From an uncultured bacterium (GTDB lineage: Bacteria > Cyanobacteriota > Vampirovibrionia > Gastranaerophilales > Gastranaerophilaceae), in NCBI GenBank assembly GCA_902763805.1, contig CACWTN010000007.1, positions 59,315-123,314 on the forward strand: a DNA stretch of 64,000 bases, read 5' to 3'. Positions within the stretch are counted from its first letter, which is position 1, and the number at the start of each line of letters is the position of its first letter. The notes beneath the pieces are model-generated. The model saw nothing but the letters and a program-made list of their open reading frames with translations. It was not told the origin of the DNA and did not search any database. Shown piece after piece: positions 18,757 to 49,618 of this stretch. A program made the position numbers and the translations under genes.

Positions 18757-18757
18757 G

Positions 18758-22935: not shown

Positions 22936-22950
22936 TAAATTAATATTCCT

Positions 22951-24301: not shown

Positions 24302-24302
24302 G

Positions 24303-25397: not shown

Positions 25398-25418
25398 GTT
25401 GTCAACTCCTTATTTAAC

Positions 25419-26144: not shown

Positions 26145-26922
26145 AGAAAAATTTGATTTAATTGTATCATTAGGAAGTGATTGTGCATGCTCTTCATATT
26201 TACGGAGATTTGGTTTGCAAGATTATTCGTATCCTTTCGATTGGTTAACAAAATTTCCTTTTGACAATAGAATCAATTTTCTATTGAACGATTTTAACGA
26301 TTTTTTAAATAAAGAAAATTTACATAAAATTGAAAAACCAAAAGATAAAGAAACAGACAGTAAATGTGATTATTATGAAGATTCTAAATATGATATTTAC
26401 TTCTTCCACGATTTTAAAAATTTCCTGCCTTTTGATGTTGCATACAATGATGTTAGAGAAAAATATACCAGAAGAATTAAAAGGTTGTATTCAAAAATAT
26501 CTGAATCTAAAAAGGTTTTGTTTGTTTGGTGGTCAAGAGAGCTGCATTTAGATATGCAGCATGTATGCAATCAATTTAATAATCTTCAAGAAAAATTTGG
26601 GAATTCTGAATTATTTTTATTATTAATAGAAGATAAAGACGAAAAAGATAAACAAGAACAATATTCGTATTTAGATAATCATATTATTCTGATAAAAGAT
26701 TATCTTATGGGACCCAATAAGCACGGAAGTACTATGGGAATAGAAGAAACCAATAATCTGATTTTTAAACAAATTCGATATAAAAGTCCTCTAAAAAATA
26801 TTATAAAAGGTTCTTGTTTAAATCTTGCAAAAAGTCTAGTAAAAATACTTATACCAAACAGAGATTTACGTAATAAAATTTATTCCAAATTACAGTATAT
26901 GTTTTTAAAAGCGAGGTTATAA
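26134..26922 (+). CDS. DUF1796-like protein (putative papain-like fold, common in polysaccharide loci)
   Basis: GTG start with a GGAGG RBS. The N-terminal '[29 protein letters not shown]' motif is characteristic of DUF1796. Confidence 0.5.
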
Positions 26923-26944
26923 TTATCTGTTATCGCCTAGAGAA

Positions 26945-28237: not shown

Positions 28238-28372
28238 TTTGTCTCCAAATAGTAAATTAACAATTCAAACGAACACAGATTGTTCTAGTTTTTACGTTTA
28301 AATATTATCATAAAATGAAAAAATTTATAACAACATAATTTTTTAGCAGAAGATTTTGTTTGTTCTTTATAT

Positions 28373-29881: not shown

Positions 29882-29961
29882 TCAAACTAAACCTATTTTT
29901 GTGATATCATATTATTTATAACTATCATAAAAAAACACAATAATCAATGAGAGTAATAAGA

Positions 29962-31167: not shown

Positions 31168-31183
31168 TATATTATTTTATATT

Positions 31184-32182: not shown

Positions 32183-32960
32183 TATATCCTCTTTGTATAT
32201 ATTCTAAAAAACACAACCAATAATAAATTGGTATTGTTGTAATTTGTCTTTTAAATCTTGCTCTTGGTTCTTTTATTAATCTGTAAAGCCACTCATTTCC
32301 TGTCTTTTTGAAAAAGCTAGGTGCTCTATTAACCTTCCCTGCAATGAAATCAAATGAACCGCCAAGTCCTATCGCTATTTTTACACCAATTTCATTTAAA
32401 AAATCTTGGTGCTCATGTATCCATAACTCTTCTTTTGGTACACCAAAAGCAACACATACTACATCCGGTTTAAATTCTCTTAAAATATTCATTATTTTTT
32501 TATCTTCATCTTCTGAAAATTTAAGAGATTTAACGTACGGAGGGGAATAGTTTTCTACTTCAAGTCCTTCATATAACTCTTTCAGTTTAATCTTTGCCTG
32601 TTGAGAAACATTTTCTGCAGAACCTAGTATGAAATACTTTTTATTATTATCTTTACATATCTCAGCAATTTTGTATGCTAAATCAGAACCGCAAACTCTG
32701 TGTATGCCGCTTATACCATACCATTTTAAGACATTAAGTATTCCAACACCGTCAATAGTATTCAACTTTGATACATTATTAACATAATCTTTAAGTTCTT
32801 CATTGTGTTGCGCTAACATTATAAATTCCAAGTTTACTGTTGCTATACTATGTACTCTCTCAGAAGAACATAAATATTGTTTAATTAAATCAAGGGTTTG
32901 TTTAGTATTATACAAATGAACTTTTATTCCCAAAATAGAAAAAGTTTTTTTTTCTGTCAT
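32148..32960 (-). CDS. WecB/TagA/CpsF-family glycosyltransferase (GT26)
   Basis: 'ATVNLEFIMLA', 'GSDL' and 'VCVAFGVPKEELWI' blocks of GT26. The start at 32960 has an AAGGAA RBS. The ORF stays open to 32984. Confidence 0.75.
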   Translation of the reverse strand: MTEKKTFSILGIKVHLYNTKQTLDLIKQYLCSSERVHSIATVNLEFIMLAQHNEELKDYVNNVSKLNTIDGVGILNVLKWYGISGIHRVCGSDLAYKIAEICKDNNKKYFILGSAENVSQQAKIKLKELYEGLEVENYSPPYVKSLKFSEDEDKKIMNILREFKPDVVCVAFGVPKEELWIHEHQDFLNEIGVKIAIGLGGSFDFIAGKVNRAPSFFKKTGNEWLYRLIKEPRARFKRQITTIPIYYWLCFLEYIQRGYNEKNSIYNMFK

Positions 32961-32980
32961 AAGTCGTTCCTTATAAAACA

Positions 32981-34018
32981 TCACGCTATAACTAGTTGGG
33001 TTTGATATCTTTCAATATCTTTTTCTACCATCATCTTGCACAAGCCTTCATAAGAAACTTTTCTTTCCCAGCCAAGGATTTTATGTGCTTTAGAAGGATC
33101 GCCGATAAGGAGTTCAACCTCTGCCGGTCTGAAAAATTTAGGATTGACTTTTACAACGGTCTTGCCTGTTTTCTTATCTATACCGACTTCATTTACTCCT
33201 TCGCCTTGCCATTCAATATCAAATCCTGCATATTTACCGGCAAGTGTTGCAAAATCTCTAATCGGATGAGTTTGACCAGTTGAAAGAACGTAAGTATCAG
33301 GTTTTTCCTGCTGTAACATCAGCCACATACCTTCAACATAATCTCCTGCAAATCCCCAGTCACGTTTTGCATCAAGGTTGCCGAGTTCTAAAGGCTTATC
33401 GGTCAAACCTAATGCTAACTGTGCAAAGTGATCTGATATTTTTCTTGTGACAAACTCTTTTCCTCTCATTGGAGATTCGTGGTTAAACAGAATGCCTGAG
33501 CAAGCAAATACACCAAAGCTTTCTCTGTAGTTAACACTCATCCAGTGTGCCATTAGTTTTGCACAACCGTATGGTGAGCGAGGATAAAACGGGGTTGTTT
33601 CTTTTTGAGGTATTTCCTGAACTTTACCAAACATCTCAGAAGTTGATGCCTGATAAAATCTTGTCTTTGGTGAAAACTCTCTTATGGCTTCCAAAATATA
33701 AACAACACCCATTCCGTCAGCTTGCGCTGTGTAAATCGGTTCAGACCAGGAAGCTGCAACAAAAGACTGTGCTGCTAAATTATAAAATTCATCCGGCTGA
33801 TAGTTTTTAAGCAATCTGCATATATTTGAAAATTCCAGCAATTCAAAATCAACAAGCTCAACCTGTTCATAGATGCCGTGTTCTTTTAGTTTAGAAAAAG
33901 TATCAGTTGCTCCGCGTCTGTATAAACCTATTACTCTGTATCCTTTTTCAAGTAAGAATTTTGCCAAGTATCCGCCGTCTTGTCCGGTAATCCCCGTAAT
34001 CATTGCTGTTTTTGTCAT
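32981..34018 (-). CDS. gmd: GDP-mannose 4,6-dehydratase
   Basis: 'ITGITGQDGGYLAKFLLEKGY', 'QASTSEMFG', 'PYGCAKL' (YxxxK) and 'GILFNHESPMRG'. The start at 34018 has an AAGGAG RBS. Confidence 0.92.
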   Translation of the reverse strand: MTKTAMITGITGQDGGYLAKFLLEKGYRVIGLYRRGATDTFSKLKEHGIYEQVELVDFELLEFSNICRLLKNYQPDEFYNLAAQSFVAASWSEPIYTAQADGMGVVYILEAIREFSPKTRFYQASTSEMFGKVQEIPQKETTPFYPRSPYGCAKLMAHWMSVNYRESFGVFACSGILFNHESPMRGKEFVTRKISDHFAQLALGLTDKPLELGNLDAKRDWGFAGDYVEGMWLMLQQEKPDTYVLSTGQTHPIRDFATLAGKYAGFDIEWQGEGVNEVGIDKKTGKTVVKVNPKFFRPAEVELLIGDPSKAHKILGWERKVSYEGLCKMMVEKDIERYQTQLVIA

Positions 34019-34040
34019 GTTATTTTCTCCTTTTATTGTT

Positions 34041-35390
34041 CTATTCATGTCTTCCTCCGAGAGCTAAAAAAACCGCTTTCACGAGAATAAATATTTCCCA
34101 AAGTATATTTCTGTTTTTTAAATAATACAAATCATATTGCAATTTTTCTGTAACATCATCATTATTAACACAATGTCCTTGATTAATCTGTGCCCAGCCG
34201 GTCCAACCCGTTTTTATCCACATTCTGCTGTTATAATAGGGGATTTCTTTTATATATATTTTAACCAAATCCTCCCATTCGGCCCTTGGACCTACTATAG
34301 ATATTTCGCCTTTTAAAATGTTTATCATCTGAGGGATCTCGTCAAACCTTGCTTTTCTAATCCATTTGCAGAAAGGGATTACTCTATCATCATTTATTTT
34401 TCCCGTGTCTTCGTTTATTTTTCCAGCCTTTGGCACATAGTCATTTGCATACATAGTACGAAGTTTGTAACACTTGAACACCTTTCCATCCATACCAACT
34501 CTTAGTTGAGTATAAATAGGATTTTTGTGATCTGTTAACCAAACTCTTAGTGCTGTAAAACCTGTAATCGGGAGCGTAACTGTTAAAATAATTAGTGCTG
34601 CGATAATATCATAACAACGTTTACAAAAATCATACACTCTGGATTTGTGAATTATATATTGATAATGAAGTTCGGTTATAGTTTTTTCATCTATATAATA
34701 TTTGCCTGTTACCATTTCATAAAATTCAGGCATTTTATAAATTGCAATATCGCTCGGTAATGTAAGAATAAGTTCTGTTGCCTGTGCAATAACAACAATA
34801 TCAACATCTTTATCATTAATAATTGATTTTAAATCCGTTACATTTTTATAAATTGGAACTTTTGCATCAGCAACTATTTCTTCATCGGTTTCGTTTTCCT
34901 GAACAAAACCAACAACCTTCATTCTTAATACTTTATGAGCTTCTATCTCATCTGCAATAATCTTTGCTCTTTCATCCGTACCAAGAATTAAAATATTTTT
35001 TTCTTTTTTGATCTTAAAGAGGTACAAATGAAACAAATCTCTGTATAATCTTAAAACAACAAATATTGTCAGAATGTTTACTGCTAAAAATTTTAGTGTT
35101 GACGTTATTGATGCGGCAAAAAATAACAAATACACAGCCGGCAGAACATGCGTCATTACAATACCTTCAAAAAGCAAATATGCGTTTTTTATATTCGTAT
35201 TAAACTCTCTGATTTTATAATTTCCTTTTAAATATAAAACCGCAATACCGACCAAAACAATTATTGTACACAAAAGCATTCTCGCTTTTGGAGTGTAGCC
35301 AAAACAATACGACCATACAAATGTTGAGGCAAATATTGTCATTAAATCAAAAATAAACATATAAGTTGTGGATTTTGACAAACTTCTCAT
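34041..35390 (-). CDS. Initiating undecaprenyl-phosphate sugar-phosphate transferase (bacterial sugar transferase family, WbaP/EpsL-like)
   Basis: N-terminal TM block. The C-terminal domain has 'KRCYDIIAALIILTVTLPI', 'FKCYKLRTMY' and 'DEIPQMINILKGEISIVGPR'. The start at 35390 has an AAGGAG RBS. Confidence 0.85.
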   Translation of the reverse strand: MRSLSKSTTYMFIFDLMTIFASTFVWSYCFGYTPKARMLLCTIIVLVGIAVLYLKGNYKIREFNTNIKNAYLLFEGIVMTHVLPAVYLLFFAASITSTLKFLAVNILTIFVVLRLYRDLFHLYLFKIKKEKNILILGTDERAKIIADEIEAHKVLRMKVVGFVQENETDEEIVADAKVPIYKNVTDLKSIINDKDVDIVVIAQATELILTLPSDIAIYKMPEFYEMVTGKYYIDEKTITELHYQYIIHKSRVYDFCKRCYDIIAALIILTVTLPITGFTALRVWLTDHKNPIYTQLRVGMDGKVFKCYKLRTMYANDYVPKAGKINEDTGKINDDRVIPFCKWIRKARFDEIPQMINILKGEISIVGPRAEWEDLVKIYIKEIPYYNSRMWIKTGWTGWAQINQGHCVNNDDVTEKLQYDLYYLKNRNILWEIFILVKAVFLALGGRHE

Positions 35391-35473
35391 TTCAGACTCC
35401 TTCTTATACTTGTTATTTATCATGAACATCTTCAAAAATCCACATAACAAATAAAATGTATATTTACAAAGTT

Positions 35474-35500
35474 AAAAAAAGCAGATATTTGTTTATCTGC
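35474..35500 (-). terminator. Rho-independent terminator (or attenuator) downstream of wzz
   Basis: On the minus strand: stem GCAGATA, 6-nt loop, TATCTGC, followed by T7. Confidence 0.6.
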
Positions 35501-35519
35501 TTTCTATCAAAAAATATTC

Positions 35520-36881
35520 TTATAATAAAATATCATATATTATTTCTTTTTGCTGCTTTTTAATAATATTTTTTATCTGTTTGTATGACTCAGAACTTGT
35601 ACTCTGAATCTTCGATATTAACACTACGTTATCTGCAGAAGCAATTTTATTTACAAAATCCTCTGACAAATCTGCATAAATCAACTCAGTATTTGGTAAT
35701 GATTTAAGGTTTAAAATTAAGTCCTGAGGCAGCTGTTCCAAAGAAACTATGAGAACTTGTTGTTTTGTATAACCCAGCAGGTCGGCTCTTACAGAATCGA
35801 GATTTTTTGTACAGTCATATATAATATTGTTACCAATCATTGAATAAGTTAACTTGTCATTTTTAATTTCAACAAATACCAGTGTTGATAATGCTGCAAG
35901 ATATCCGAGAATACAACCGATTATTATATTTATCATTAATTTCGGTGATGAGTTTTCGAACGGTCTTGGCAAAATCGGTTCGCTAATTACTAAAACCTTT
36001 GATGCATCTGACATTTGTTCAACCATTTTTGCCCACTCAAGTTTTGTTGCAAGCTGGGCTAATTTCTGACTTTCTTCTGTTACGGCAATTTGAGAGCGTT
36101 CACCTGCTACATATTGGCTTTTGATATTACCCATTGCCTGTGATGCTGAGCGGGAAAAAGCACTCATAGCGGATAAATTTCCGATTCCGCTAACTGCCTG
36201 TACAGGAATACCTGATGATTGGTTTAATCTTTTGTTTAAATCTTGTTTTATTTTTGCGTATTCCGCTTCAATTATCTTTTTGTCTGATTTTGATTTTTCT
36301 GCGTTAAGCTCTTTGTGTAAATCAATATAGTTAGTTATCAGAGATGCTACTACACCATAAGCCAATTTTGGACTCTTTGAAGTATATTCTACTTTTATAA
36401 CATTTGTATTTTTTTCATTTTCAATTTTTAAAATTTTTCCCTTACCGTAAAAAGCTTTTGCAGGTACGTATTCACCCTCTCTTTTGTTTGGAATAAATCC
36501 GTATTTTTTCTTGAACACAATGTTATTATCTTTTATAACTTTATCCAACACTAATGCTGATTTCATCAGCTCAATTTCGTTATTAATCGCCTTATCAGCA
36601 CCCATTGTAACCATAGAACCGGTTGCTTCACTTAAAACATAAGGGTTTACTTCTATCATGTTTGAGCTGTTTGATTTGTTTATATATAAATCGGCTGTGA
36701 CTGTATATTTTTTTGGCAGGATGAAAGTAAGTAATATAAAGAACACCAAAATAGAACAAAATACTATTAACAATAAAGTTTTCCTGCTCCATATTGTTTT
36801 CCATAACTTTTCAATGTTTATATTAAAATCTTCATCCAAATCTTCTGACGGATTATAGAATACGACGTTTTCCTGCTGCAT
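35520..36881 (-). CDS. wzz: Wzz-like polysaccharide co-polymerase (chain-length determinant)
   Basis: The N-terminal 'LWKTIWSRKTLLLIVFCSILVFFILL' TM follows a Wzz-type motif. A long helical periplasmic region is followed by a second TM ('INIIIGCILGYLAALSTLVFV'). No kinase Walker motifs are present. Confidence 0.65.
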   Translation of the reverse strand: MQQENVVFYNPSEDLDEDFNINIEKLWKTIWSRKTLLLIVFCSILVFFILLTFILPKKYTVTADLYINKSNSSNMIEVNPYVLSEATGSMVTMGADKAINNEIELMKSALVLDKVIKDNNIVFKKKYGFIPNKREGEYVPAKAFYGKGKILKIENEKNTNVIKVEYTSKSPKLAYGVVASLITNYIDLHKELNAEKSKSDKKIIEAEYAKIKQDLNKRLNQSSGIPVQAVSGIGNLSAMSAFSRSASQAMGNIKSQYVAGERSQIAVTEESQKLAQLATKLEWAKMVEQMSDASKVLVISEPILPRPFENSSPKLMINIIIGCILGYLAALSTLVFVEIKNDKLTYSMIGNNIIYDCTKNLDSVRADLLGYTKQQVLIVSLEQLPQDLILNLKSLPNTELIYADLSEDFVNKIASADNVVLISKIQSTSSESYKQIKNIIKKQQKEIIYDILL

Positions 36882-36899
36882 TTATTTTTACTCCTTTTA

Positions 36900-38288
36900 T
36901 TATACCCTTCCGTAGCAATCTTCATATCTGATTATATCATCTTCAGAAAGATAATCACCCTGCTGAACCTCAATAATTTTCAGTTCTTCACCGTATGGAT
37001 TTTGCAAAGAATGGATTGCGCCAACCGGTATATCAATACTTCCTCCTGCATCAATATTATATTGTTTACCGTCTTTCAGAACCAAAGCTTTTCCTTCTAG
37101 AACAACCCAATGTTCGGAACGGTGTTTGTGAGATTGTACAGAAAGTTTTTGTCCCGGAAGCACACAAATTGTTTTTGTTAAATACCCTTTTCCGCCGTTC
37201 ATACAGGTGTAATATCCCCAGGGTCTGAAAACGGTTTTATGAAGTTTTGTTGTATCGCTTTCGGCTGTTTTCAGTTTCTCGTAAAGTTTTTTAACATTCT
37301 GTGATTCGTCCATTTTACATGCCATTATCGCATCTTCCGTTTCCACGAGAATAATATCTTCCAAGCCGGAAACAGCCACTATTTCTTTTTGCGAATAAAT
37401 GAATGAGTTTTTAACGTTATCTACAACAACTTTTCCTGTTAATACATTGCCGTCTTTGTCTTTTTCTTTAACGTTGTATATAGACTGCCAGGAGCCTAAA
37501 TCGTTCCAATCGGAAAGCAATTCTACCAGCGCAATTTTATCCGATTTTTCCATAACAGCATAGTCAATAGATATTGACGGCATTTTATCATATAACATGT
37601 ATGGTATTTTTGACTCTTTTGTAAAATCCAAATCCGAAAGATTTTTGTAAATATCCGGTGCAAATTTTTCTATCTCTTTCATAAATACTGAGATTTTGCC
37701 CATAAATATTCCGCCGTTCCAGTAATAATCTCCGCTTGCCAGGTATTTTTCTGCGGTCTTAATATCAGGTTTTTCAACAAATTTTTCAACTTTATACCCG
37801 CCGGACAAAGATTTGTCTGTCTTAATATATCCATAACCTGTTTCAGGATAATTCGGCTTGATACCAAATGTAACAATATATCCCTGTTCTGCAAGAACTT
37901 TTCCTTTTTCAACGGTTTTTGCAAATGCTTCAGTATTTTTTATCAAATGATCGGAAGGAACAATAAGAACAATATCGTCACCCGAGCCGGTTTGTATAAA
38001 ATATTCAAGCGTTGATGCAATTGCAGGTGCCGTATTTTTGCCAATTGGCTCACCTATTACAACATTTGCTTTATCAATTTTATTTAGCTGAAGTTTGATA
38101 TTTTGGTAATGCTTTACATTTGTTATGGTTACAATTTCGGATGGCATAGAGAAAACACATAATCTGTTAAAAGTCTTTTGGAGTAAACTCTCTTTTTCAT
38201 CAAATGATAATAGCTGTTTTGGATACTCTTCTCTTGACAAGGGCCACAATCTGCTTCCGCTTCCGCCTGCTAAAATAATGCTTTTCAT
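36900..38288 (-). CDS. manC: Mannose-1-phosphate guanylyltransferase / mannose-6-phosphate isomerase (type II PMI)
   Basis: 'ILAGGSGSRLWPLSR' nucleotidyltransferase motif. C-terminal cupin 'SVQSHKHRSEHWVVLEG'. The start at 38288 has a GAGGGAAG RBS. Confidence 0.9.
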   Translation of the reverse strand: MKSIILAGGSGSRLWPLSREEYPKQLLSFDEKESLLQKTFNRLCVFSMPSEIVTITNVKHYQNIKLQLNKIDKANVVIGEPIGKNTAPAIASTLEYFIQTGSGDDIVLIVPSDHLIKNTEAFAKTVEKGKVLAEQGYIVTFGIKPNYPETGYGYIKTDKSLSGGYKVEKFVEKPDIKTAEKYLASGDYYWNGGIFMGKISVFMKEIEKFAPDIYKNLSDLDFTKESKIPYMLYDKMPSISIDYAVMEKSDKIALVELLSDWNDLGSWQSIYNVKEKDKDGNVLTGKVVVDNVKNSFIYSQKEIVAVSGLEDIILVETEDAIMACKMDESQNVKKLYEKLKTAESDTTKLHKTVFRPWGYYTCMNGGKGYLTKTICVLPGQKLSVQSHKHRSEHWVVLEGKALVLKDGKQYNIDAGGSIDIPVGAIHSLQNPYGEELKIIEVQQGDYLSEDDIIRYEDCYGRV

Positions 38289-38333
38289 TAACTTCCCTCG
38301 CATAAAACTCGTACACTAATTTATTGCTACTAC

Positions 38334-38362
38334 ATTATATTACAAGCATGAAAATTGTACAA
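38334..38362 (-). promoter_or_regulatory. Candidate sigma70-type promoter of the manC-led polysaccharide operon
   Basis: Minus strand TTGTAC-N17-TATAAT. The -35 element sits inside a 14-bp perfect palindrome, AAATTGTACAATTT. Confidence 0.45.
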
Positions 38363-38416
38363 TTTCATAAACAAAAGAAATTGACACACCACCTGATATG
38401 TTGAAAATAATCCTGA

Positions 38417-39190
38417 TTAAAGTTCAAGTTTCGGTAAATCAGCGCTGAATGGTTCAAGTTCTTTGCGCATAAGTTCCTGACTGCGTCTTTTGACAGAACG
38501 AAAGATATTTCTTGTAGTTGCTTTCATTGGCACAATCAAATCTTTCGGTGCATCAAAATTACCAATCACATAAGCATTGTCATTTTTTCTCTGTATTCGT
38601 CTCTGCCTGTTTGAAAGAGGCTGGAATCCCATCTTTTTGTAAAACTCCATTGCAAAAGATTTTTCGGGAATTTCCGAACGGACATAACACTGTTTAAATC
38701 CGTCTTTTAATAGGGTGTGGAAAAATTCGCATACAACAACTTTTCCCTCGCCAAGAATTTTCTTGTTCCAAGTTGCAAGCCAATCCAGCTCCGTTTCATC
38801 AACGGAATGATTTTTCCTGCTCGAATACTGAAATCTTCCGTTTTTATCTATTTTTAAAGTATTTCCGATTAATATCGCACTCGGTTCTTCATCAGAAAAT
38901 GCCAAAAGAACTTTTGCTTTATCCTCTTTATATTTTGTCTCGGAAAGGATTGCGGCTCCTGCATCAAATGCTTCTTTTATAACTTGTTTTGCAGATTCGT
39001 TATTTACCTCGTATTTTTTATAAAACTGCTCAATATTTGCAGAAATATTTTTCAGATAACCGATATCCTTCTTTTCAAGACTGTAAACGACAACATTTTT
39101 TGCTTTGTCGTTCAGATAACCGTATTTTGCCAAAGGTATCGCCCCAAATGCGGTATTTGTATTGTATGTCCTATTACAATTAATCTTCAT
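38417..39190 (-). CDS. Hypothetical protein with a GNAT-like acetyltransferase C-terminal half
   Basis: 'ILGEGKVVVCEFFHTLLKDGFKQCYVRSE...AMEFYKKMGFQP' resembles GNAT motif A/B. The N-terminal half is uncharacterised. Confidence 0.35.
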   Translation of the reverse strand: MKINCNRTYNTNTAFGAIPLAKYGYLNDKAKNVVVYSLEKKDIGYLKNISANIEQFYKKYEVNNESAKQVIKEAFDAGAAILSETKYKEDKAKVLLAFSDEEPSAILIGNTLKIDKNGRFQYSSRKNHSVDETELDWLATWNKKILGEGKVVVCEFFHTLLKDGFKQCYVRSEIPEKSFAMEFYKKMGFQPLSNRQRRIQRKNDNAYVIGNFDAPKDLIVPMKATTRNIFRSVKRRSQELMRKELEPFSADLPKLEL

Positions 39191-39265
39191 ATATAAATAA
39201 GAAAACGCCTGAAAAATAATTTTGCTGTTTAATTTTTCAGATTAAAACTACACTGTTTACATCAT

Positions 39266-39294
39266 TTACAGGGATTATCCCGATATGATATAAT
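39266..39294 (+). promoter_or_regulatory. Candidate promoter of the helicase-nuclease gene
   Basis: TTACAG-N17-TATAAT with a TG-extended -10 (TGATATAAT). An AAGGGAG RBS lies before the ATG at 39328. Confidence 0.45.
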
Positions 39295-39327
39295 ACCTTA
39301 TTATATATAAGTACAAAGGGAGATAAG

Positions 39328-42300
39328 ATGTTACAGGAAGCAACGAGAGCGATTAATTCCGCATTCAATAACAGTTTTATAAAAAAATTAAGCCAGTATC
39401 TGCACGACTGCGTAAGAGAAGAAGTAAAAAGTTCTACTTTCAGAAATCTTAAAGCAGACAAGGATAATAAATGGATTTTTCTTAACGAAAACGACACATT
39501 ATTTACTGAAGGTCTGGAATATTTAAAACTTGAAGGTTCTGACCCGAAAATCACAGAGCTTATGATTCAGGCAGATACAAGTCAAAAAGACAAGTACCTT
39601 ATATACGGATATTTGTTCCTCACCGGCAAAAGCAAATCAGGAAGAAAGAATGAGTTTCTGACTCCGCTTCTTTATGCTCCCTGCCATTTGGAGAGAAACG
39701 GTGTCAACATAAACTGTATGCTGACAGATGAGTTTATATCCCTGAATACAGGCGCACTGACTGCATTGATGAAAAAATCCGATGATGAAGATGAAACAGA
39801 ATCTCTGCTTGAAGGTCTGCTTGATGTCGTACCTTCTGTTCCGATTACGAAAGAAAAGCTTGATATATTTTTAACAACCTTGAAATCAATTGTTCCTGAT
39901 ATTGATATCTCGCTTGATGCCGGCGGAAGAATCGATGAAGATAATATAACAAAAGATTTTTACAATGAAAAAATAGATTCGCAAAATATAGATGAACTTA
40001 TAGAGGAAGAAGAAAACGCAGCTAAAAAAGCAATAAAGCTTGAAAAAATTAATATAACAAACCAATGCGCAATTATTCTTACCAAACGTCCGTCAGCTAC
40101 AGCCGGTGTTCTCCACGAACTTATACAAATAGCGGAAAAACCGAGCGGAATATACAGAGAAACTGTTTTAAACATAATCAATGAAGAATACACCCAGTCT
40201 AAACCGGTTGATTCACAGCAAAAAACACTGGAGAATTTCTTCCCGGTAACTCCGCTGTCGCTATCAGACGCACAGTTAAACGTTATCAAAAACGTTGAAA
40301 ATTCAAGACTTGTATCTGTTTTCGGGCCTCCCGGAACAGGTAAATCACAAACTATAGTCAACCTTGCCGCACACCTTATTGCAAATGGCAAAACCGTTTT
40401 AATCGCTTCTCGTATGGACAAAGCGGTTGACGTTGTTGCAGAAAGGCTTAATGAGCTGGGAGCTCCGTTTTTGGCACTGCGTGCAGGAAGGCTGAATTAT
40501 CAGAGAGAACTTTCTATGCAGCTGCAGGATCTTCTTGCAGAAAAAATTGACCTGAATGAAGGAAGCGAAAATCTTATTCAATGCAGCGTTTCGGATATGG
40601 AAGAACTGCTGAAAACAATTTCCGATATGGAAAAGAAATCCGAAAAAATAATTAAACTTGAAGAAGAATGGAACAGAATAAACGAACAGATTAAGCTTGA
40701 AGAACCGCAGCATCAGAACCATTTCTACATCAAAAAAGTTCTGAAGGGCGATGAAATTCAAACTATAGACACAACCATACGAACCCTTTCAGAAAATCAG
40801 GAAAAATCAGGATTCTGGGCAGGAATAAAAAACCATTCTTCAATTAATAATCTGAAAAAGATACTTAACCTTAAAAATTTTGATGTTAATAATGAAAATC
40901 TTTCAATTCTTCAAACAGAGCTGGAATACGCTAAGCTAATTTTTGAAGCACGAAAAATTGAAACCGAAATACAGAAAACAGGTAATATTCACGTTCTTTC
41001 GGAACAAATCCGCACTCTGAGAAAAAAACAAAAACGTCTTGCAATTGATATACTAAGAAGCAAACGCAGAGAGGCTTTACAGGGGCTTATGCACGACCCT
41101 GTCAAACGTCAAAGGTTGTTTGTTCATTCAAAATCGCTGACTGAAAGAAAGAAAAATCTTCAGAACAGACTTCTTGAACAGGAAGATTTCAGACCGCTTT
41201 TAGAGGCTTTTCCCTGCTGGTGTGTTACTACTTATGCCGCATCAGGTTCACTTCCTCTGAAACCGGGTTTATTTGATGTTGCAATTATTGATGAAGCATC
41301 ACAATGCGATATTGCAAGCTGTTTCCCGATACTTTTCAGAGCAAAACGTGCAGTTGTTGTTGGTGATGACAAGCAGTTGCCTCACCTTTCATTCCTTGAA
41401 AAAGCGAAAGAACAATCCTTTATGTCTCAATACGGAATCGGTGACAGATATCAGCTTATGTGGAGATTCAGAACGAACTCTATGTTTGATTTGGCAAATT
41501 TCTACTCTATGCACCCCGTCTTATTAGACGAACATTTCAGAAGCTTACCGCCAATAATCAATTTTTCAAACAAAGAATTTTACGGTAACAGAATTAAAGT
41601 TATGCGCAGAAATGATAACACCAAAAAAGTTTTGGAAACTGTTGTCGTACCTGACGGAAAAGTAGATTTTGACGCAACAAGAAACCTGCCCGAAATAGAG
41701 GCGCTTGTCCAAAGACTTCACGAAATAGTTGTTGAAGATGAGCGTAAAAACCCTGAACATCCTGTTTCTATCGGCATAATTTCACCGTTCAGAGCTCAGG
41801 TTGAACAACTTAAAATCTCTGTTGCAAGAGTTTTAACCGAACACATGATGGAAAAACACCAGATAGAAATCGGTACAGCACACACCTTCCAGGGTGATGA
41901 AAGAGATATTATACTAATATCCTGGGCATACGCAAACAACAGTTTTCCGCAAAGTTTAATCTTCCTGCAAAAGCCAAACCTGTTTAACGTTGCAATTACA
42001 AGGGCAAGATATCAGATGATTAACTTTATCTCCAAAAATCCGAGAGAACTGCCCGAAGGTATATTAAGAAGTTATCTGGGCTTTGTAGAAGAATATGAAA
42101 ACAGATATAAACTTGCTCAATCAGACGAGTTTGACGAAAATATTTACAAAAACTCATTTGAGAAGGAAGTTGCAGAAGCCTTCCGTACCATCGGGCACAA
42201 GGTTACCTGCGGAGTTGATATTGCGGGACTTAGTGCCGACCTGCTTGTTGATGACAAGTTTGTTGTAGAATGCGACGGTGTCGAGGACAAAACTCCTTCA

Positions 42301-42429
42301 CGGGTTTCAAATATGAAAAAACAGACAATATTTGAACGCTCAGGCTTAAAAGTTTCAAGAATATCAGCAAGGGAATGGCAATATTCACCAAAAGCCTGTA
42401 TTGACAGGATTATAAACAGTAATTTATAA
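39328..42429 (+). CDS. DUF4011-like / SF1 (Upf1-like, AAA_11+AAA_12) helicase fused to a C-terminal Vsr/DUF559-type endonuclease domain
   Basis: Walker A 'GPPGTGKSQT' (aa 333-342), 'IIDEASQ' (653-659), 'VVVGDDKQLP', 'LLDEHFRS', 'GTAHTFQGDERDIIL' and 'NVAITRAR'. A long coiled-coil insert lies between motifs I and II. The C-terminal 'FEKEVAEAF...GVDIAGLSADLLVDDKFVVECDG...ISAREW' (aa about 940-1025) is restriction-endonuclease-like. Confidence 0.8.
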   Translation: MLQEATRAINSAFNNSFIKKLSQYLHDCVREEVKSSTFRNLKADKDNKWIFLNENDTLFTEGLEYLKLEGSDPKITELMIQADTSQKDKYLIYGYLFLTGKSKSGRKNEFLTPLLYAPCHLERNGVNINCMLTDEFISLNTGALTALMKKSDDEDETESLLEGLLDVVPSVPITKEKLDIFLTTLKSIVPDIDISLDAGGRIDEDNITKDFYNEKIDSQNIDELIEEEENAAKKAIKLEKINITNQCAIILTKRPSATAGVLHELIQIAEKPSGIYRETVLNIINEEYTQSKPVDSQQKTLENFFPVTPLSLSDAQLNVIKNVENSRLVSVFGPPGTGKSQTIVNLAAHLIANGKTVLIASRMDKAVDVVAERLNELGAPFLALRAGRLNYQRELSMQLQDLLAEKIDLNEGSENLIQCSVSDMEELLKTISDMEKKSEKIIKLEEEWNRINEQIKLEEPQHQNHFYIKKVLKGDEIQTIDTTIRTLSENQEKSGFWAGIKNHSSINNLKKILNLKNFDVNNENLSILQTELEYAKLIFEARKIETEIQKTGNIHVLSEQIRTLRKKQKRLAIDILRSKRREALQGLMHDPVKRQRLFVHSKSLTERKKNLQNRLLEQEDFRPLLEAFPCWCVTTYAASGSLPLKPGLFDVAIIDEASQCDIASCFPILFRAKRAVVVGDDKQLPHLSFLEKAKEQSFMSQYGIGDRYQLMWRFRTNSMFDLANFYSMHPVLLDEHFRSLPPIINFSNKEFYGNRIKVMRRNDNTKKVLETVVVPDGKVDFDATRNLPEIEALVQRLHEIVVEDERKNPEHPVSIGIISPFRAQVEQLKISVARVLTEHMMEKHQIEIGTAHTFQGDERDIILISWAYANNSFPQSLIFLQKPNLFNVAITRARYQMINFISKNPRELPEGILRSYLGFVEEYENRYKLAQSDEFDENIYKNSFEKEVAEAFRTIGHKVTCGVDIAGLSADLLVDDKFVVECDGVEDKTPSRVSNMKKQTIFERSGLKVSRISAREWQYSPKACIDRIINSNL

Positions 42430-42436
42430 AATAATA

Positions 42437-42464
42437 AAACCTTCGTTAAAGCGAAGGTTTTTTA
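42437..42464 (+). terminator. Rho-independent terminator after the helicase-nuclease gene
   Basis: AAAACCTTCG-ttaaag-CGAAGGTTTTTT: a 10-bp stem including the A/T extension, followed by a T-run. Confidence 0.8.
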
Positions 42465-42554
42465 ATCTCCTTTTTAAAACTATTTCATCTATATGTTTGA
42501 TTACAGGGATGGAAAAATCTTATAGACTGATGATAGCAATTTATGGGGAGAGAT

Positions 42555-43430
42555 ATGGCGAAATCAAATTTAAAGTTAAAACCTGCTGAGAGAAAAAACA
42601 ACCTTAAAGTTGTTACAAAACCCGACGTAAAAACCACAAAATACAGTGATATCAACCTTAATAAATGGAAGGAGTATCCTCACATAAAAACTGATACTTT
42701 GTGGGAATTTCCGACTCGTCTTAAAGAAGGCGGACATTCTAACGAATACCACGGAAACTATATACCGCAAATTGCACAGCAGTTATATGAAAGATTTACC
42801 AAAGAAAACGATATAGTTTTGGACTTATTCTTTGGTTCAGGAACATCAGGCATTGAAGCTGTCAATATGAAACGAAGATGCATCGGTGTTGAACTCAAAG
42901 ACGAACTTGCAGAGAAAGTTTCAGAAAAATTCACACCGAAACAGCTTGTAACAGATGTAAACATAATCTGCGCAGATTCCGCAAGCGAGCTTGCAAAAGA
43001 AAAGGTTCAGGCGCGTCTTGATATAATGGGCAAAAAACAGGCACAGCTTCTTATTCTTCATCCGCCGTATGATGATATCATTAAGTTCTCTGATAAAAAA
43101 GAAGATTTATCAAACTGTTCATCTACGGAAGAATTTTATGACCTGTTTGAAAAAGTTGCAAAAAACGGATACGATATGCTTGAAAAAGGCAGATTTGCGG
43201 CATTAATAATCGGTGACAGCTATAAAAATTCCGAAGTTCAGCCCCTCGGGTTTATGTGTATGGCACGCATGATGAACCTCGGATTTAAGCTCAAAGGTAT
43301 TATCGTAAAAGATATTCAGGGTAACGAAAGAGCCAAGGGCAAAACAGCTAACCTCTGGAGGTACAGAGCCCTCGCAGGCGGATTTTATATCTTCAAACAC
43401 GAATACGTTATGATTTTCCAGAAGGGATAA
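42555..43430 (+). CDS. SAM-dependent methyltransferase with N4/N6 amino-methyltransferase motifs (DNA or RNA target unresolved)
   Basis: Motif X/I block 'HGNYIPQIAQQLYERFTKENDIVLDLFFGSGTSGIEAVNMKRRCIGVE' is followed about 70 aa later by motif IV 'LLILHPPYDD'. The start at MAKSN has a GGGGAGAG RBS. The ORF stays open to 42543. Confidence 0.65.
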   Translation: MAKSNLKLKPAERKNNLKVVTKPDVKTTKYSDINLNKWKEYPHIKTDTLWEFPTRLKEGGHSNEYHGNYIPQIAQQLYERFTKENDIVLDLFFGSGTSGIEAVNMKRRCIGVELKDELAEKVSEKFTPKQLVTDVNIICADSASELAKEKVQARLDIMGKKQAQLLILHPPYDDIIKFSDKKEDLSNCSSTEEFYDLFEKVAKNGYDMLEKGRFAALIIGDSYKNSEVQPLGFMCMARMMNLGFKLKGIIVKDIQGNERAKGKTANLWRYRALAGGFYIFKHEYVMIFQKG

Positions 43431-45484: not shown

Positions 45485-46849
45485 ATGAAAGCTGCGTTAT
45501 GTTACTGTCAATATTCTGCACCCTCTTTTTTCGGATATAAAGAGGCTAAAACATACGCAAACCGCACGAGGCTATTCAACAAATTTATTAACAGAAAGCT
45601 TTACAACTGCAACTTAAATAAACTTGAGGGTATTCAGGAGGGGCTAAAAACTTTTGAAGGCTTATCAATGAAACAAATTGCCTTTGCTCTCACTGATTTG
45701 CACTCAATTAATATGATAAGAGGGTGTATAAACCACTGTCTGCACTGTTACGCAAATGCTCAGCCGTTTTTTTCACGGGCACCGTTTGAGAGTTTTAAGC
45801 AAATAATGGATGACATACTGGCTCTGAAAAAAAGGATAGGAATAAATCCCGTTTCACACAGAGGCGACAAATACGTTGATTGCTACTTTGACGCAGACGG
45901 TCTTAATATGCATTTATTTGATAAAGAGGGTAAAAAACATGACGCCGTTGAACTCGGCACACTTATTCACAAATCAACTGGTATGAAGGCAGTTTTTGAC
46001 ACAAACGGCTGGGACAGGAATGACAGGGAAAAACAAAAAATTGCGGAAGATTATGTCAAAAAACTTTTGAAAAATAAAAACTCCAAACATTTTTATCAGA
46101 TTAATATTTCGCTCAACCCGTTTAATCCCAATTATGTGAAAGCCTTAAAGGACGGATATAATCCCGAAACATATTCGCCTTTTATACCTATAGACGAGGT
46201 TATGAACCCAAAAGAGCCAACTCCGTTAAAAAAAGCAGAAGAAAGATACAGAGAATACGTTAAAAACGAAGCAAATATTTTATTCACATTTACACCTTTG
46301 CTTCTGAAAGGCAAACTTGGCGCTATTATAAGAGGACTTGATAAAAAAATTCCAAAAATGGAAGGGTGTTACCTTGAGGATTACACAACTACACTGAGTA
46401 ATATTCTCGGAAATCTGGAATGGTTATACCGTGCTGATTTAATCGGCGAACAAAAAGTTATTAAAAATGAAAAAATGCTTAAAAAAGCAATGCGTCTGTA
46501 CTTAAAACGACTTAATAAAAATTCTGATTTTCTTTTCAGCTCGGGCAGAATGGAAAAATTCTACAAAGTTAAACACAACGGCTCGCTTAAAGGTATTGAA
46601 AAAATCGATAATCTCAGAAAACGAAGCAAAAGGAATTTTGCAAAACTTATGATGACCAAAAAGTTATCTTCCGTTGATTTAATGTACCTCAAAATGATAA
46701 ACTCTGACGGAAAAGTCTTTTTATACGATAACTATGCCGTTATCCCGACAGACATTCAGCTTAATACCGGCAACAAACCGCTGCAAAAACCATTCTGGAT
46801 AAAAGTAAAAGATTTTGTCTTAAAAACGGATATGATTGACCGTATTTAA
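45485..46849 (+). CDS. Radical-SAM-like protein of an uncharacterised family (paralog of 24..1193)
   Basis: 'IRGCINHCLHC' is a CX3CX2C motif. The blocks shared with ORF 24..1193 are listed under that feature. It carries an extra Lys-rich C-terminal region. Confidence 0.45.
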   Translation: MKAALCYCQYSAPSFFGYKEAKTYANRTRLFNKFINRKLYNCNLNKLEGIQEGLKTFEGLSMKQIAFALTDLHSINMIRGCINHCLHCYANAQPFFSRAPFESFKQIMDDILALKKRIGINPVSHRGDKYVDCYFDADGLNMHLFDKEGKKHDAVELGTLIHKSTGMKAVFDTNGWDRNDREKQKIAEDYVKKLLKNKNSKHFYQINISLNPFNPNYVKALKDGYNPETYSPFIPIDEVMNPKEPTPLKKAEERYREYVKNEANILFTFTPLLLKGKLGAIIRGLDKKIPKMEGCYLEDYTTTLSNILGNLEWLYRADLIGEQKVIKNEKMLKKAMRLYLKRLNKNSDFLFSSGRMEKFYKVKHNGSLKGIEKIDNLRKRSKRNFAKLMMTKKLSSVDLMYLKMINSDGKVFLYDNYAVIPTDIQLNTGNKPLQKPFWIKVKDFVLKTDMIDRI

Positions 46850-46852: not shown

Positions 46853-48067
46853 TTATTTTTTCTTCTCAATTTTGAGCGCATCAAATTTTGCCTGCATTGT
46901 AGGGTTATTTTTTGTAAGTTTTTTTATAGTCAAATCTTCAACTTTGTTATTAGCAGAGTTAAGGTGTTTTTCAGACAGCACAAGGGCATCTCTTATATTC
47001 TGAAGATTTTTTATAGCCTTATCAATGCCTGATATTGCCTCGTCAAATCTTGCACTTGCGTCCTTAACATTTTTGAAAAACTTTTCCTTAAACTCGTTCA
47101 TCTCTGCTTCAAAATTTGATACATCAATATTCTGAGCTTTTACTAAAGCCAGCTCTTTTCGGTATTCGATAGAGTTTGATGCGGCATTTCTTAACAGAGT
47201 AATTATCGGAATAAAGAACTGAGGTCTTATCACGTACATTTTTTCATATCTGTGAGAAACATCGACAATTCCTGAGTTATAAAGTTCATTTTCAGGCTCA
47301 AGCATTGAAACCAGTACTGCATATTCACATTTTTTCTCTCGTCTGTCTTTATCAAGCTCTTTGAAAAAGTCCTCGTTTTTCTTTTTCTTTGAACCTGAAT
47401 CCGCCTCATTTTTCATCTCAAACATTATTGATATAAACTCATTACCGAGTTCGTCAAAATCTCTGAAAATATAATCACCCTTGCTTCCTGTTGCAGCATC
47501 ATTATCTTTTTCAAAATACGCTCCCTGAAAAGCTGTCGGTCTTAATTGATTAAATGAGAGTTCACAGTGCTGTTCAAGGCTTTCGCCAATCATTTTAGTT
47601 GATAATCTCGATTTAAAATCTTTGTACCGTTCTATTTCTTCTTCCTTAAACCGAAGCTGAGTTTCATATTGTTCTTTCAGAGTTTGCTCTTTGAGCAGGC
47701 ATTCCTTTTCGGTTAATGCTTTTTCCCCGGACAATTTATTTATGCAGTTATCTTTTTCCGCAAGTTCGGAATTTTTTTGAGCAAGAAGTCTGCTGATTTC
47801 AAGCTCCTTATCCTTATCAAAAGATGAAAGTCTGGATTTGTACTCCGATATTTCATTTTCTTTTGCCGTTAATTTTTCATTGAATATTCTTTCAGCTTCA
47901 AGACGCGCAAGCTGAACAGCATTCTCTTTTTCAGCCTCAAAGCGTTCTTCTCTTTCGGACAGCTCTTTTGTAAATTCCCTGTCCCTGACCTGCTTAACTA
48001 TTGCAGAATAACCAGATTCATCAACCTGAAAAACTTCACCGCATTTCGGACATTTTATCTCTTGCAT
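46853..48067 (-). CDS. DUF2130-like protein: N-terminal Zn-ribbon, coiled coil, C-terminal PD-(D/E)xK-like domain
   Basis: 'KCPKCGEVFQVDESGY' N-terminus. Coiled coil at aa about 30-150. 'GESLEQHCE ... GDYIFRD ... IMFEMKNE' gives an E / D / ExK arrangement (D198, E217, K219). Confidence 0.6.
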   Translation of the reverse strand: MQEIKCPKCGEVFQVDESGYSAIVKQVRDREFTKELSEREERFEAEKENAVQLARLEAERIFNEKLTAKENEISEYKSRLSSFDKDKELEISRLLAQKNSELAEKDNCINKLSGEKALTEKECLLKEQTLKEQYETQLRFKEEEIERYKDFKSRLSTKMIGESLEQHCELSFNQLRPTAFQGAYFEKDNDAATGSKGDYIFRDFDELGNEFISIMFEMKNEADSGSKKKKNEDFFKELDKDRREKKCEYAVLVSMLEPENELYNSGIVDVSHRYEKMYVIRPQFFIPIITLLRNAASNSIEYRKELALVKAQNIDVSNFEAEMNEFKEKFFKNVKDASARFDEAISGIDKAIKNLQNIRDALVLSEKHLNSANNKVEDLTIKKLTKNNPTMQAKFDALKIEKKK

Positions 48068-48178: not shown

Positions 48179-49618
48179 ATGGTCAAAAACATAAAAAAAG
48201 AAATTCAGATAAAGAGCCGTGCAAGAATGAAAAACCACGGCGAAGTCTGCACTGCATCAAAAGAAGTTGAAGCAATGCTTGAGCTTGTAAAAGATGAGTT
48301 TAATGTTCCAGACAAACTTTTTCTTGAACCTGCTTGCGGCGACGGGAATTTTCTCACTGCAATTTTGAAAAGAAAACTCGCCAATATTCCGAAAAATGAC
48401 ACTGCAAACATTATTTCTGCTCTGGAAAGTATATATGGAGCGGATTTATTAAAGGATAATACAGAAACCGCAAGAAAAAGATTATACGAAATTGCACTGG
48501 CTCACTGTTCAGAAACACCTTCTGATAACTTCAGAAACGATGCTGACAGAATTCTCAAAAAAAATATCATACAGGGTGATTTCCTCAGCGGCAGACTTTT
48601 TGAAAATATAAAATTTAACGTTATAGCCGGCAACCCACCTTATCAAATAATTGACGGAGGCGGAACTGGTGACAGCGCAAAACCTGTTTATCAGCGTTTT
48701 ATTCAGAAAGCTAAAGAATTAAATCCTGATTACATTACTATGATTGTACCTTCACGCTGGATGAAGGGTGGAAAAGGACTCAGATATTTCAGGCAGGAAA
48801 TGATTAATGACACAAGGTTAAAAATTATTCACGATTTTGAAAACGGTCAAATATGTTTTCCAGATTTACACATAGACGGGGGTATATGTTATTTTCTGTG
48901 GGATAAAATGTATAACGGCCCCGCAGAATATCACCACTACGCTCTCGACGGGACAAAAAGCGTTACAAGCAGATTTCTCAAAAACAATTTTTCCGACACG
49001 GTTATAAGAGATTACAGGCAAATCTCAATTATAGAGAAAGTCGCAAAACTTAAAGAAAATAAATTTTCGTCCGTTGTTTATTCAAGAAATCCTTACGGAT
49101 TTTATGCAAATTTATTCAGCTTTCCCGAATACTATCCTGACATAGAACTCAGCAAAGAACCTAAAGATAATTATTATAAAATTTACGGTGTAACAGGGAA
49201 AAAAGGACTTGCAAAAAGAACATTCGGCTACTTACCTGCGTCTGCCGTTAAAAAAAATCAAACAGAAGCTGTGAGTTACAAACTGTTTTTTTCAAAAGCT
49301 TATACAATAACTTCAACCATACCGCCCAAAATTATTCTTGCAAAACCAAAAGAAGTCTGTACGGAAACTTTTTTACAGATAGGGAATTTTTCTACGGAAA
49401 AAGAAGCTCAAAACTGTCTGAGCTATATTAAAACAAGATTTTTCAGAGCATTACTGTTTTTCAACAGACATTCACTGAATATTTCAAAAAAATCCTTCAA
49501 TCTTATTCCGCTTCAGGATTTTTCCGATGAATGGAACGACGAAAAATTGTATGAAAAATACTGTTTGGAACAGAAAGAAATAGACTTTATAAATTATGTA
49601 ATTAAACCGATGACGTAA
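48179..49618 (+). CDS. Gamma-class N6-adenine DNA methyltransferase (Eco57I-methylase-like domain)
   Basis: 'GEVCT' N-terminal block. Motif I 'FLEPACGDGNFL'. Motif IV 'VIAGNPPYQ' followed by 'SAKPVYQRFIQKA' and 'IVPSRWMKGG'. A C-terminal region of about 300 aa would serve target recognition. An alternative start exists at 48227. Confidence 0.8.
   Translation: MVKNIKKEIQIKSRARMKNHGEVCTASKEVEAMLELVKDEFNVPDKLFLEPACGDGNFLTAILKRKLANIPKNDTANIISALESIYGADLLKDNTETARKRLYEIALAHCSETPSDNFRNDADRILKKNIIQGDFLSGRLFENIKFNVIAGNPPYQIIDGGGTGDSAKPVYQRFIQKAKELNPDYITMIVPSRWMKGGKGLRYFRQEMINDTRLKIIHDFENGQICFPDLHIDGGICYFLWDKMYNGPAEYHHYALDGTKSVTSRFLKNNFSDTVIRDYRQISIIEKVAKLKENKFSSVVYSRNPYGFYANLFSFPEYYPDIELSKEPKDNYYKIYGVTGKKGLAKRTFGYLPASAVKKNQTEAVSYKLFFSKAYTITSTIPPKIILAKPKEVCTETFLQIGNFSTEKEAQNCLSYIKTRFFRALLFFNRHSLNISKKSFNLIPLQDFSDEWNDEKLYEKYCLEQKEIDFINYVIKPMT

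Follow-up and report, generated by a model that had tools for sequence, protein, structure and literature searches.

The question raised by this locus is whether a helicase–nuclease gene that resembles anti-phage proteins serves defence in its host or belongs to the upkeep of the genome. The gene, here called HEL, was found at 39328..42429 on the plus strand of the window, which is a stretch of 64,000 nucleotides from an uncultured bacterium (assembly GCA_902763805.1, contig CACWTN010000007.1, positions 59,315 to 123,314 of the forward strand). The source lineage was Candidatus Gastranaerophilales (Melainabacteria), with gut and rumen samples. The open reading frame (ORF) was intact by ORF call, translation, and Pfam, starting with ATG and encoding 1033 amino acids (aa) plus a stop. 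All the peptide strings quoted in an original prediction made from the sequence were located in this translation, and its domain reading, an N-terminal domain, an Upf1-like superfamily 1 (SF1) motor, and a Vsr/MTES_1575 nuclease, was essentially right according to Pfam. The comparison with relatives indicated that HEL is a vertically inherited, lineage-wide gene of Gastranaerophilales, under purifying selection as strong as that on ArgRS and PriA. Our reading is that HEL may be a lineage-fixed, Hhe-like helicase–nuclease of constitutive genome maintenance, to which a probability of roughly 0.5 was given.

The distribution of HEL was scanned in one genome per GTDB species. A relative was encoded in 494 of these species representatives, and the analysis of orthologs covered the best 80 (81 loci with the window). 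All 80 were metagenome-assembled genomes of Gastranaerophilales/Melainabacteria, with proteins of full length and 69–94% identity. Full-length intact orthologs were present in 78 of the 81 loci, the remaining three being cut by contig ends, and no pseudogenes were seen among the 81. In a library of representatives at 50% identity, a 63% identical representative was followed by full-length homologs of only about 30–33% identity, such as a Ktedonobacterales protein, and beyond those by a large family of about 900–1100-aa proteins with all three modules. Neither the INPHARED phage collection nor IMG/VR contained a HEL ortholog; only helicase-level relatives of 24–30% identity appeared there, and a phage-borne origin was rejected for this reason.

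The sequence evolution of HEL was compared with that of the neighbouring genes. For the same pairs of loci, the median pairwise identities of HEL, ArgRS, PriA, Nth, and a solute-binding protein (SBP) were 86%, 83%, 86%, 83%, and 74%, respectively, and the pairwise distances of HEL tracked those of the neighbouring housekeeping genes with Spearman coefficients of 0.55–0.92. The ratio of nonsynonymous to synonymous substitution (dN/dS) was 0.027 for the whole protein, 0.018 for the N-terminal domain, 0.010–0.021 for the RecA domains, 0.044 for the insert, and 0.053 for the nuclease, values obtained with saturated dS, as synonymous sites were saturated even between proteins of 90–98% identity. 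Moreover, 454 of the 1033 columns were invariant across 78 species.

The genomic context of the orthologs was of a housekeeping kind. The commonest arrangement was Nth–ArgRS–SBP–c1 on the minus strand, then HEL on the plus strand, an optional small ORF, and PriA; c1, a secreted protein of 133 aa, lay upstream of HEL in 49 of 80 loci. In 22 of the 60 loci with 3 kb or more of sequence downstream, HEL was followed within three genes by PriA and/or a Pif1-like helicase in the same orientation. In 13 of those 22, the gap from the HEL stop to the next helicase (PriA or Pif1) was only 1–37 nt, which suggests that HEL is probably co-transcribed with PriA or Pif1 in these loci. Between HEL and priA, a conserved ORF of about 118–141 aa without a Pfam match, named c10, was observed in six species (L008 11140..11565, with equivalents in L014, L018, L019, L026, and L061), and it may belong to the HEL–priA transcription unit.

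Furthermore, 122 distinct protein families from positions −1, +1, and +2 were compared with PADLOC. No matched PADLOC family was hit by more than one member; most of the hits came from one and the same methyltransferase, and the others from a Fic-like protein, an RmuC-like protein, and a transporter. An accessory defence gene would be patchy in distribution, fast-evolving, and surrounded by defence genes, and HEL did not fit this description, having clade-wide orthologs, a dN/dS of 0.027, and few neighbours that match defence models. The original prediction had named synteny with core replication or repair genes, together with no enrichment near defence genes, as the pattern that would speak against its proposal. 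This pattern was largely what the orthologs displayed, as seen in their neighbours (ArgRS, Nth, SBP, PriA, and Pif1), in an evolution like that of ArgRS and PriA, and in the survey of neighbour families.

The motor of HEL was assigned to the Upf1-like SF1B helicases by its domains and motifs. The Pfam model AAA_11 matched in two parts, aa 312–377 and 544–685 (4.9e-24, 85.9 bits against a cut-off of 27), and AAA_12 matched aa 718–898 (3.5e-24, 85.9 bits, cut-off 27). Motifs I, II, III, V, and VI were intact, and GPPGTGKS, DEAS, GDDKQL, QGDERD, and TRAR were invariant across the HEL family. The AlphaFold model, built on 36 family members, had a mean predicted local distance difference test score (pLDDT) of 81 and a predicted template modelling score (pTM) of 0.74. 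It was made up of an N-terminal and a small C-terminal domain, both alpha/beta, of two RecA-like domains, and of an all-helical insert, all encoded on the plus strand. The first part of RecA-like domain 1 (aa 311–410, 40258..40557; Pfam, alignment, AlphaFold) includes the Walker A motif GPPGTGKS (aa 333–340, with K339 as the Walker A lysine) and the motif Ia region. The second part (aa 621–715, 41188..41472; Pfam, alignment; dN/dS 0.010) includes motif II, IIDEASQ (aa 653–659), and motif III, VGDDKQLP (aa 678–685). RecA-like domain 2 (aa 716–905, 41473..42042; Pfam AAA_12, Foldseek) includes FQGDERD (aa 854–860) and NVAITRAR (aa 887–894).

The two parts of RecA-like domain 1 flank an insert of about 210 aa, which is located between motifs Ia and II and built of helices only (aa 411–620, 40558..41187; AlphaFold; dN/dS 0.044), with helices modelled at aa 414–462, 474–513, and 522–605. 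Its position corresponds to the 1B/1C accessory region in Upf1-like helicases, and it was covered from about aa 415 by the ProA and PDC-S37 profiles of defence proteins, which are discussed below. Motifs I and II, between which a coiled-coil insert of about 300 aa had been proposed, are about 315 aa apart.

The helicase core was matched best by SETX, Sen1, Upf1, IGHMBP2, Aquarius, Dna2, and ZNFX1 in Foldseek, with a probability of 1.00 for SETX, Sen1, and Upf1. The profile search of the PDB likewise gave a core of the Upf1/Sen1/IGHMBP2/Dna2 type and also matched SETX and ZNFX1. Upf1-like SF1B helicases translocate in the 5'→3' direction. Upf1, Sen1/SETX, IGHMBP2, and Dna2 have the core fold and all the helicase motifs in common with HEL at a sequence identity of about 14–17%, but none has its N-terminal domain or its C-terminal Vsr-type nuclease. 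Dna2 is likewise a helicase–nuclease, active in replication and repair; its nuclease lies at the N-terminus, belongs to another PD-(D/E)xK type, contains an Fe-S cluster, and is threaded by single-stranded DNA before this reaches the helicase. HEL was not taken as a Dna2-type nuclease–helicase, because the Dna2 match was confined to the helicase core, the HEL nuclease is C-terminal and of the Vsr type, and the N-terminal domain had no fold match.

The C-terminal domain (aa 943–1033, 42154..42426; Pfam; dN/dS 0.053) was assigned to the Vsr-type fold by a match to MTES_1575 (PF18741) at aa 944–1030 (1.2e-10, 41.8 bits against a gathering threshold of 38.2). Among 36 family members, this domain matched MTES_1575 in 34 (best E 1.4e-25), RAP in 11, and DUF559 in 9. 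The nuclease string pointed out in the original prediction, ADLLVDDKFVVECDG, corresponds to aa 970–984 and contains D971, E981, and D983, and ISAREW corresponds to aa 1012–1017. E945, D971, E981, D983, G984, D987, K998, Q999, and R1004 were invariant in the nuclease domains of 78 species. The acidic active-site residues of a Vsr-type nuclease therein look intact, and E981 was aligned by hhalign with the glutamate of IECDG in Hhe. The catalytic set expected of the fold comprises the aspartate of the (P)D strand, the E-x-D-G strand, and a histidine after it, the last of which is lacking in the Gastranaerophilales clade.

The N-terminal domain (aa 1–305, 39328..40242; AlphaFold; dN/dS 0.018) was modelled as an alpha/beta core with long beta-hairpins (aa 89–132) and a variable acidic linker (aa 198–240), and it has a conserved YLHDC motif. 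It had been described as DUF4011-like from three strings, which were indeed present: LIYGYLFLTGKS at aa 91–102, LTPLLYAPCHLERNG at aa 111–125, and NTGALTAL at aa 140–147. The Pfam family itself (PF13195) was not detected, either in HEL at E ≤ 1 or among the families listed for the 36 members, whereas the Hhe of Klebsiella matched the same model with 1.6e-37. By hhalign, the profile of the domain matched an alignment of five Hhe-type N-termini weakly, over 45 columns only (E 6e-4, probability 28%). It gave an E of 0.023 with the Klebsiella Hhe alone and no match with the N-terminus of a DUF3320 protein from Sphingobium. The weak alignment fell on the very motif pointed out before, LIYGYLFLTGK...LTPLLYAPCHLER in HEL against LYLALGFLEWY...YAPLFTIPVRCER in Hhe. 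Remote homology of this core motif with DUF4011 is a plausible lead, short of membership. In addition, a fold search with the isolated N-terminal domain (model pLDDT 70.5) gave no PDB match with an E better than 0.13, and no match among the solved structures was obtained in the sequence-profile search of the PDB. Among the distant full-length homologs, P0129, P0134, P0152, and P0175 possessed extra zinc-ribbon modules, three of them with an N-terminal CxxC...CxxC extension and one with a topoisomerase-type C4 zinc finger at the C-terminus; the Pfam family Zn_ribbon_Top1 was found in 3 of the 36 members. These modules hint at DNA binding in the wider family.

The original prediction held that this architecture has no assigned function, which was wrong, because Hhe, of matching architecture, is an experimentally supported anti-phage system with models in PADLOC and NCBIfam and is tracked in DefenseFinder as HheA (PMC12278908). 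Hhe combines DUF4011, an SF1 helicase, and a Vsr nuclease in a single-gene system active against lambda, T3, T7, and PhiV-1, and its E1731A mutation abolished its weak defence against T7 (bioRxiv 10.1101/2022.06.16.496414). A phage gene that counters Hhe has likewise been described (10.1101/2024.04.14.589459). The PDB copy searched contained no Hhe structure, and no mechanism was found in the literature searched. The domain comparison well supports the view that HEL is a compact Hhe-like helicase–nuclease, whose nearest characterised relatives are the much longer anti-phage proteins of the Hhe/ProA type.

The PADLOC best matches of HEL were PDC-S37 (2e-54, 182.9 bits), MkoC, MkoA, and Hhe (3.4e-27), all of them partial and to much longer proteins; the Hhe match (PDLC02194) covered aa 614–1029. 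In NCBIfam, Hhe (NF042953) scored 112.7 bits against a cut-off of 2000, with aa 568–1030 aligned to positions 1203–1678 of 1797, and ProA (NF058533) scored 174.5 bits against a cut-off of 1500, with aa 417–1030 aligned to positions 1066–1701 of 1903. The family profile of HEL aligned with the Hhe of a Klebsiella plasmid (1911 aa) with an E of 4e-42 over aa 593–1033, covering motif II through the complete nuclease (hhalign). DUF3320 was not found in HEL by Pfam, the protein stopping three residues past the MTES_1575 match, and was detected in the Sphingobium relative. Accordingly, membership in Hhe was rejected, the curated cut-off being missed more than ten-fold with no Pfam DUF4011 match and no DUF3320, and membership in ProA was rejected at a score far under its cut-off.

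In Hhe proteins (about 1800–1900 aa, with DUF3320), the modules follow the same order as in HEL: an N-terminal domain comes first, then an SF1 helicase of the Upf1-like type that carries a large insert, then MTES_1575. They have the catalytic glutamate of ECDG in common with HEL, and the short core motif G-x-x-F-x-x-G/W ... (A/T)PL-x-x-P of the HEL N-terminal domain aligns with DUF4011. However, HEL has 1033 aa compared with 1911 aa, and lacks DUF3320, Pfam DUF4011, and the histidine of ECDGxxH. Moreover, HEL is core-like, vertically inherited, and in a housekeeping context, whereas Hhe is found on plasmids or in defence islands. ProA and PDC-S37, the latter a PADLOC candidate, were the best-scoring defence models, with alignments that began in the helical insert, at about aa 415, and extended through the whole nuclease; their profiles are 1903 and 1550 positions long, of which HEL matched only the C-terminal third. 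A source paper for ProA or PDC-S37 was not found in the literature search. With MkoC of Mokosh type II, Nhi, and Hna, HEL shares the overall principle of joining helicase and nuclease within one polypeptide. MkoC carries a PLD nuclease. HEL was not assigned to Mokosh type II, as the MkoC profile aligned only to the helicase region (aa 413–935) and Pfam gave no PLD domain, the nuclease being MTES_1575. The PADLOC models of Nhi and Hna did not match HEL.

The long relatives of HEL clearly live in defence contexts, being frequent on plasmids beside BREX, DUF262, and AbiE genes. For instance, a relative of 1576 aa on plasmid p3ABAYE of Acinetobacter baumannii AYE (L089, 2632..7362), with a helicase and MTES_1575 but no DUF4011 or DUF3320, lies directly downstream of brxL in a BREX-1 locus. 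The Klebsiella Hhe and a Vibrio DUF3320 protein each adjoin paired DUF262 genes. A different case is PA14_RS11765, the large DUF4011 gene of Pseudomonas aeruginosa, which is core, occurs in every isolate, and flanks the core defence hotspot cDHS1; its place at the edge of a variable hotspot gives a precedent for core status (PMC10250203). By description, it is a large Hhe-type gene that, like HEL, is kept lineage-wide at the edge of a variable region. However, it flanks a defence hotspot, whereas the variable segment upstream of HEL consists of a glycan locus and small ORFs, not of defence systems.

Genome maintenance was favoured for HEL because the gene is lineage-wide and vertically inherited, is under ArgRS/PriA-like selection in all modules, has housekeeping neighbours and a recurrent, tight linkage to priA or pif1, and is without defence neighbours. 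In such a role, the motor would load on single-stranded nucleic acid, most likely single-stranded DNA at gaps, flaps, and stalled forks, and would translocate 5'→3' with ATP, a polarity expected from its membership in the Upf1-like SF1B family. The C-terminal nuclease could cut the tracked or displaced strand, and the N-terminal domain and helical insert may gate or target the helicase–nuclease activity. The role might be fork and flap processing, replication restart, or the removal of aberrant DNA or hybrid structures. HEL would be a domesticated, or an ancestral housekeeping, form of the Hhe-type defence enzyme and not an accessory defence gene. It is proposed only tentatively that an Hhe-type enzyme was recruited as, or originally was, an order-wide housekeeping factor of replication or repair, co-transcribed with PriA or Pif1 and acting at stalled forks and flaps. 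The "immunity or repair" of the original prediction survives in this form, repair or genome maintenance being the better supported half and immunity less so on conservation and context.

Several points weigh against genome maintenance. The substrate, polarity, and nuclease activity of HEL and its orthologs are all inferred, and the closest relatives that have been characterised, namely Hhe and, going by annotation, ProA, MkoC, and PDC-S37, are all defence proteins. The histidine of the usual ECDGxxH was missing in the Gastranaerophilales clade, which has ECDGVEDK, and was present in distant homologs and Hhe (ECDGPTH and ECDGAAYH), so that the catalytic chemistry of the nuclease may differ. PriA or Pif1 was adjacent in about a third of the loci only, and this adjacency may simply reflect the synteny of core genes. 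In the window itself, HEL is monocistronic, with a glycan locus on one side and a methyltransferase on the other, and these neighbours are not conserved among the orthologs. The figure of 494 is a count of genomes with a relative, not a share of all Gastranaerophilales genomes. Furthermore, the homologs of about 30% identity in other phyla sit in accessory, conflict-type contexts and qualitatively resemble defence genes. One is part of a Fic–HEL–DUF2130–DUF2779–DUF2726 operon beside a diversity-generating retroelement (bAvd and reverse transcriptase), and others lie beside TIR, LexA, and toxin–antitoxin genes, a PDDEXK_1 nuclease, or MqsA and PIN toxin–antitoxin genes.

These relatives lead to the reading of HEL as a lineage-fixed innate defence protein, a small Hhe whose helicase would scan for or sense DNA that is foreign or aberrant, for example intermediates of phage replication, whose Vsr-type nuclease would degrade it, as has been proposed for Hhe, and whose gene would have become fixed and strongly conserved in Gastranaerophilales. 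It agrees with the best matches in the defence libraries, PDC-S37, MkoC, MkoA, and Hhe in PADLOC and ProA and Hhe in NCBIfam, and with the Hhe alignment, in which E981 falls on the glutamate whose loss abolishes defence. It also agrees with the distant homologs among Fic/SoFic-like, retroelement, TIR, and toxin–antitoxin genes, with the plasmid-borne relatives next to BREX, DUF262, and AbiE, and with the variable insertion site that lies just upstream of HEL among species. However, the conservation and dN/dS of HEL equal those of ArgRS and PriA and its distances track theirs, which is atypical of defence genes. The 122 neighbour families showed no defence-island context, linkage to priA or pif1 was frequent and tight, the Hhe and ProA thresholds were missed by more than ten-fold, and DUF3320 and Pfam DUF4011 were absent. 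A fixed defence role was considered rather unlikely.

An enzyme directed at RNA or RNA:DNA hybrids, which in the manner of Sen1, SETX, or Upf1 would clear R-loops and stalled transcripts or would degrade aberrant RNA with a RAP/Vsr-like nuclease, was judged improbable. The top structural and sequence matches, SETX, Sen1, Upf1, and IGHMBP2, are RNA or RNA:DNA helicases, and the C-terminal domain of 11 of the 36 family members matched RAP, a domain known from organellar RNA-processing proteins; housekeeping-like conservation would also fit a role at the interface of transcription and replication. However, the helicase fold cannot tell these substrates apart, because the same clade also includes Dna2 and further members that act on DNA. 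PriA and Pif1, to which HEL is linked, are DNA helicases, no RNA-binding accessory domain was detected in HEL by Pfam, and the homologous nuclease of Hhe has been treated as a DNA nuclease (10.1101/2022.06.16.496414). The neighbourhood of the window raises one more reading, in which HEL is the restriction component of a pair with the methyltransferase downstream. The original prediction was correct about this gene, a type II DNA methyltransferase (PADLOC MTase_II 6.6e-88) at 42543..43430 on the same, plus strand, 113 bp from HEL, and a second methyltransferase-like gene was found at 48179..49618. But the methyltransferase adjoined HEL in only 2 of the 81 loci, the window and L005 (94% identity), HEL being retained everywhere, and a terminator hairpin lies between the two genes. 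A restriction–modification pairing was rejected on this co-occurrence as very improbable, and the argument for defence from a modification-rich context fails for the same reason.

The signals around HEL in the window were read from the sequence. A promoter-like site, TTTACA-18-TATAAT with an upstream TG (extended −10), lies at 39265..39294 on the plus strand and matches 11 of 12 consensus positions, and the total of such sites across the scanned region was no higher than in shuffled sequence. A Shine–Dalgarno-like AAGGGAG on the same strand (39316..39322) precedes the ATG by 5 nt. Downstream, a terminator-like structure at 42436..42467, AAAACCTTCG-TTAAAG-CGAAGGTTTT with a T-run, is usable in either direction; its 10-bp hairpin spans 42436..42461 and is followed by the T-run. 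The program listed the terminator on the minus strand, and the T-run is readable on the plus strand. The promoter and strong terminator claimed for HEL were thus present, but as consensus matches only.

Upstream of HEL, the divergent gene that had been called GNAT-like, an ORF of 256 aa at 38417..39190 on the minus strand, did not match any model in Pfam, NCBIfam, or PADLOC. It is the last gene of a surface-polysaccharide locus of about 22 kb (16977..39190) with a low GC content (0.25–0.34), which has been inserted between the conserved SBP/c1 pair and HEL. This locus encodes a Wzx-like flippase, a Wzy_C polymerase, WbsX and GT1 glycosyltransferases, a DegT aminotransferase, a GDP-mannose dehydratase, ManC, Wzz, and an initiating sugar transferase. 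In the window, the pair of c1 and SBP that is normally found upstream lies at 15192..16866, about 22 kb from HEL. In most other species c1 is about 460 bp upstream of HEL, and some species have different small ORFs there. The region between c1 and HEL therefore looks like a recurrent insertion site.

Other genes of the window were also recorded. The gene at 48179..49618 (PADLOC MTase_II 2.4e-41) is type II-like and also resembles the methyltransferase part of type IIG enzymes; both methyltransferases may be orphans, since no recognisable restriction endonuclease is nearby. Two genes of the window, a radical-SAM gene (45485..46849) and, convergent with it, a DUF2130 gene (46853..48067), were missing from the otherwise syntenic downstream region of L005, and the pair looks like a two-gene indel. 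The protein encoded by an ORF at the left end of the window (24..1193, minus strand) is a distant paralog of this radical-SAM protein, with 28% identity over 172 aa. A DUF2130 gene (L082, 7188..8498) also lies 6 bp downstream of a HEL homolog of 30% identity, in the Fic–HEL–DUF2130 operon described above. The link between HEL and DUF2130, whose gene in the window is 4.4 kb downstream, was set down as an unproven coincidence, because no other ortholog locus had DUF2130 within 8 kb.

The architecture and kind of HEL are already known from Hhe and related proteins with a helicase and a Vsr nuclease. What is new is a short variant that falls outside the family definitions, an N-terminal domain without structural relatives, core-gene behaviour in an order, and the linkage to replication-restart helicases. 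If an order-wide role in replication or repair is true, it would provide a non-immune physiological function for an architecture so far known only from anti-phage screens, and would define a widespread unnamed family of about 900–1100 aa, in which an Upf1-like helicase and MTES_1575 are joined to an N-terminal domain of new fold. When the defence systems of Melainabacteria genomes are annotated by homology, HEL should not be counted among them untested. If genome maintenance is the function of HEL, some genes labelled "defence" by homology would be housekeeping enzymes, or the reverse, and HEL would be a natural example of how immune and repair functions exchange parts.

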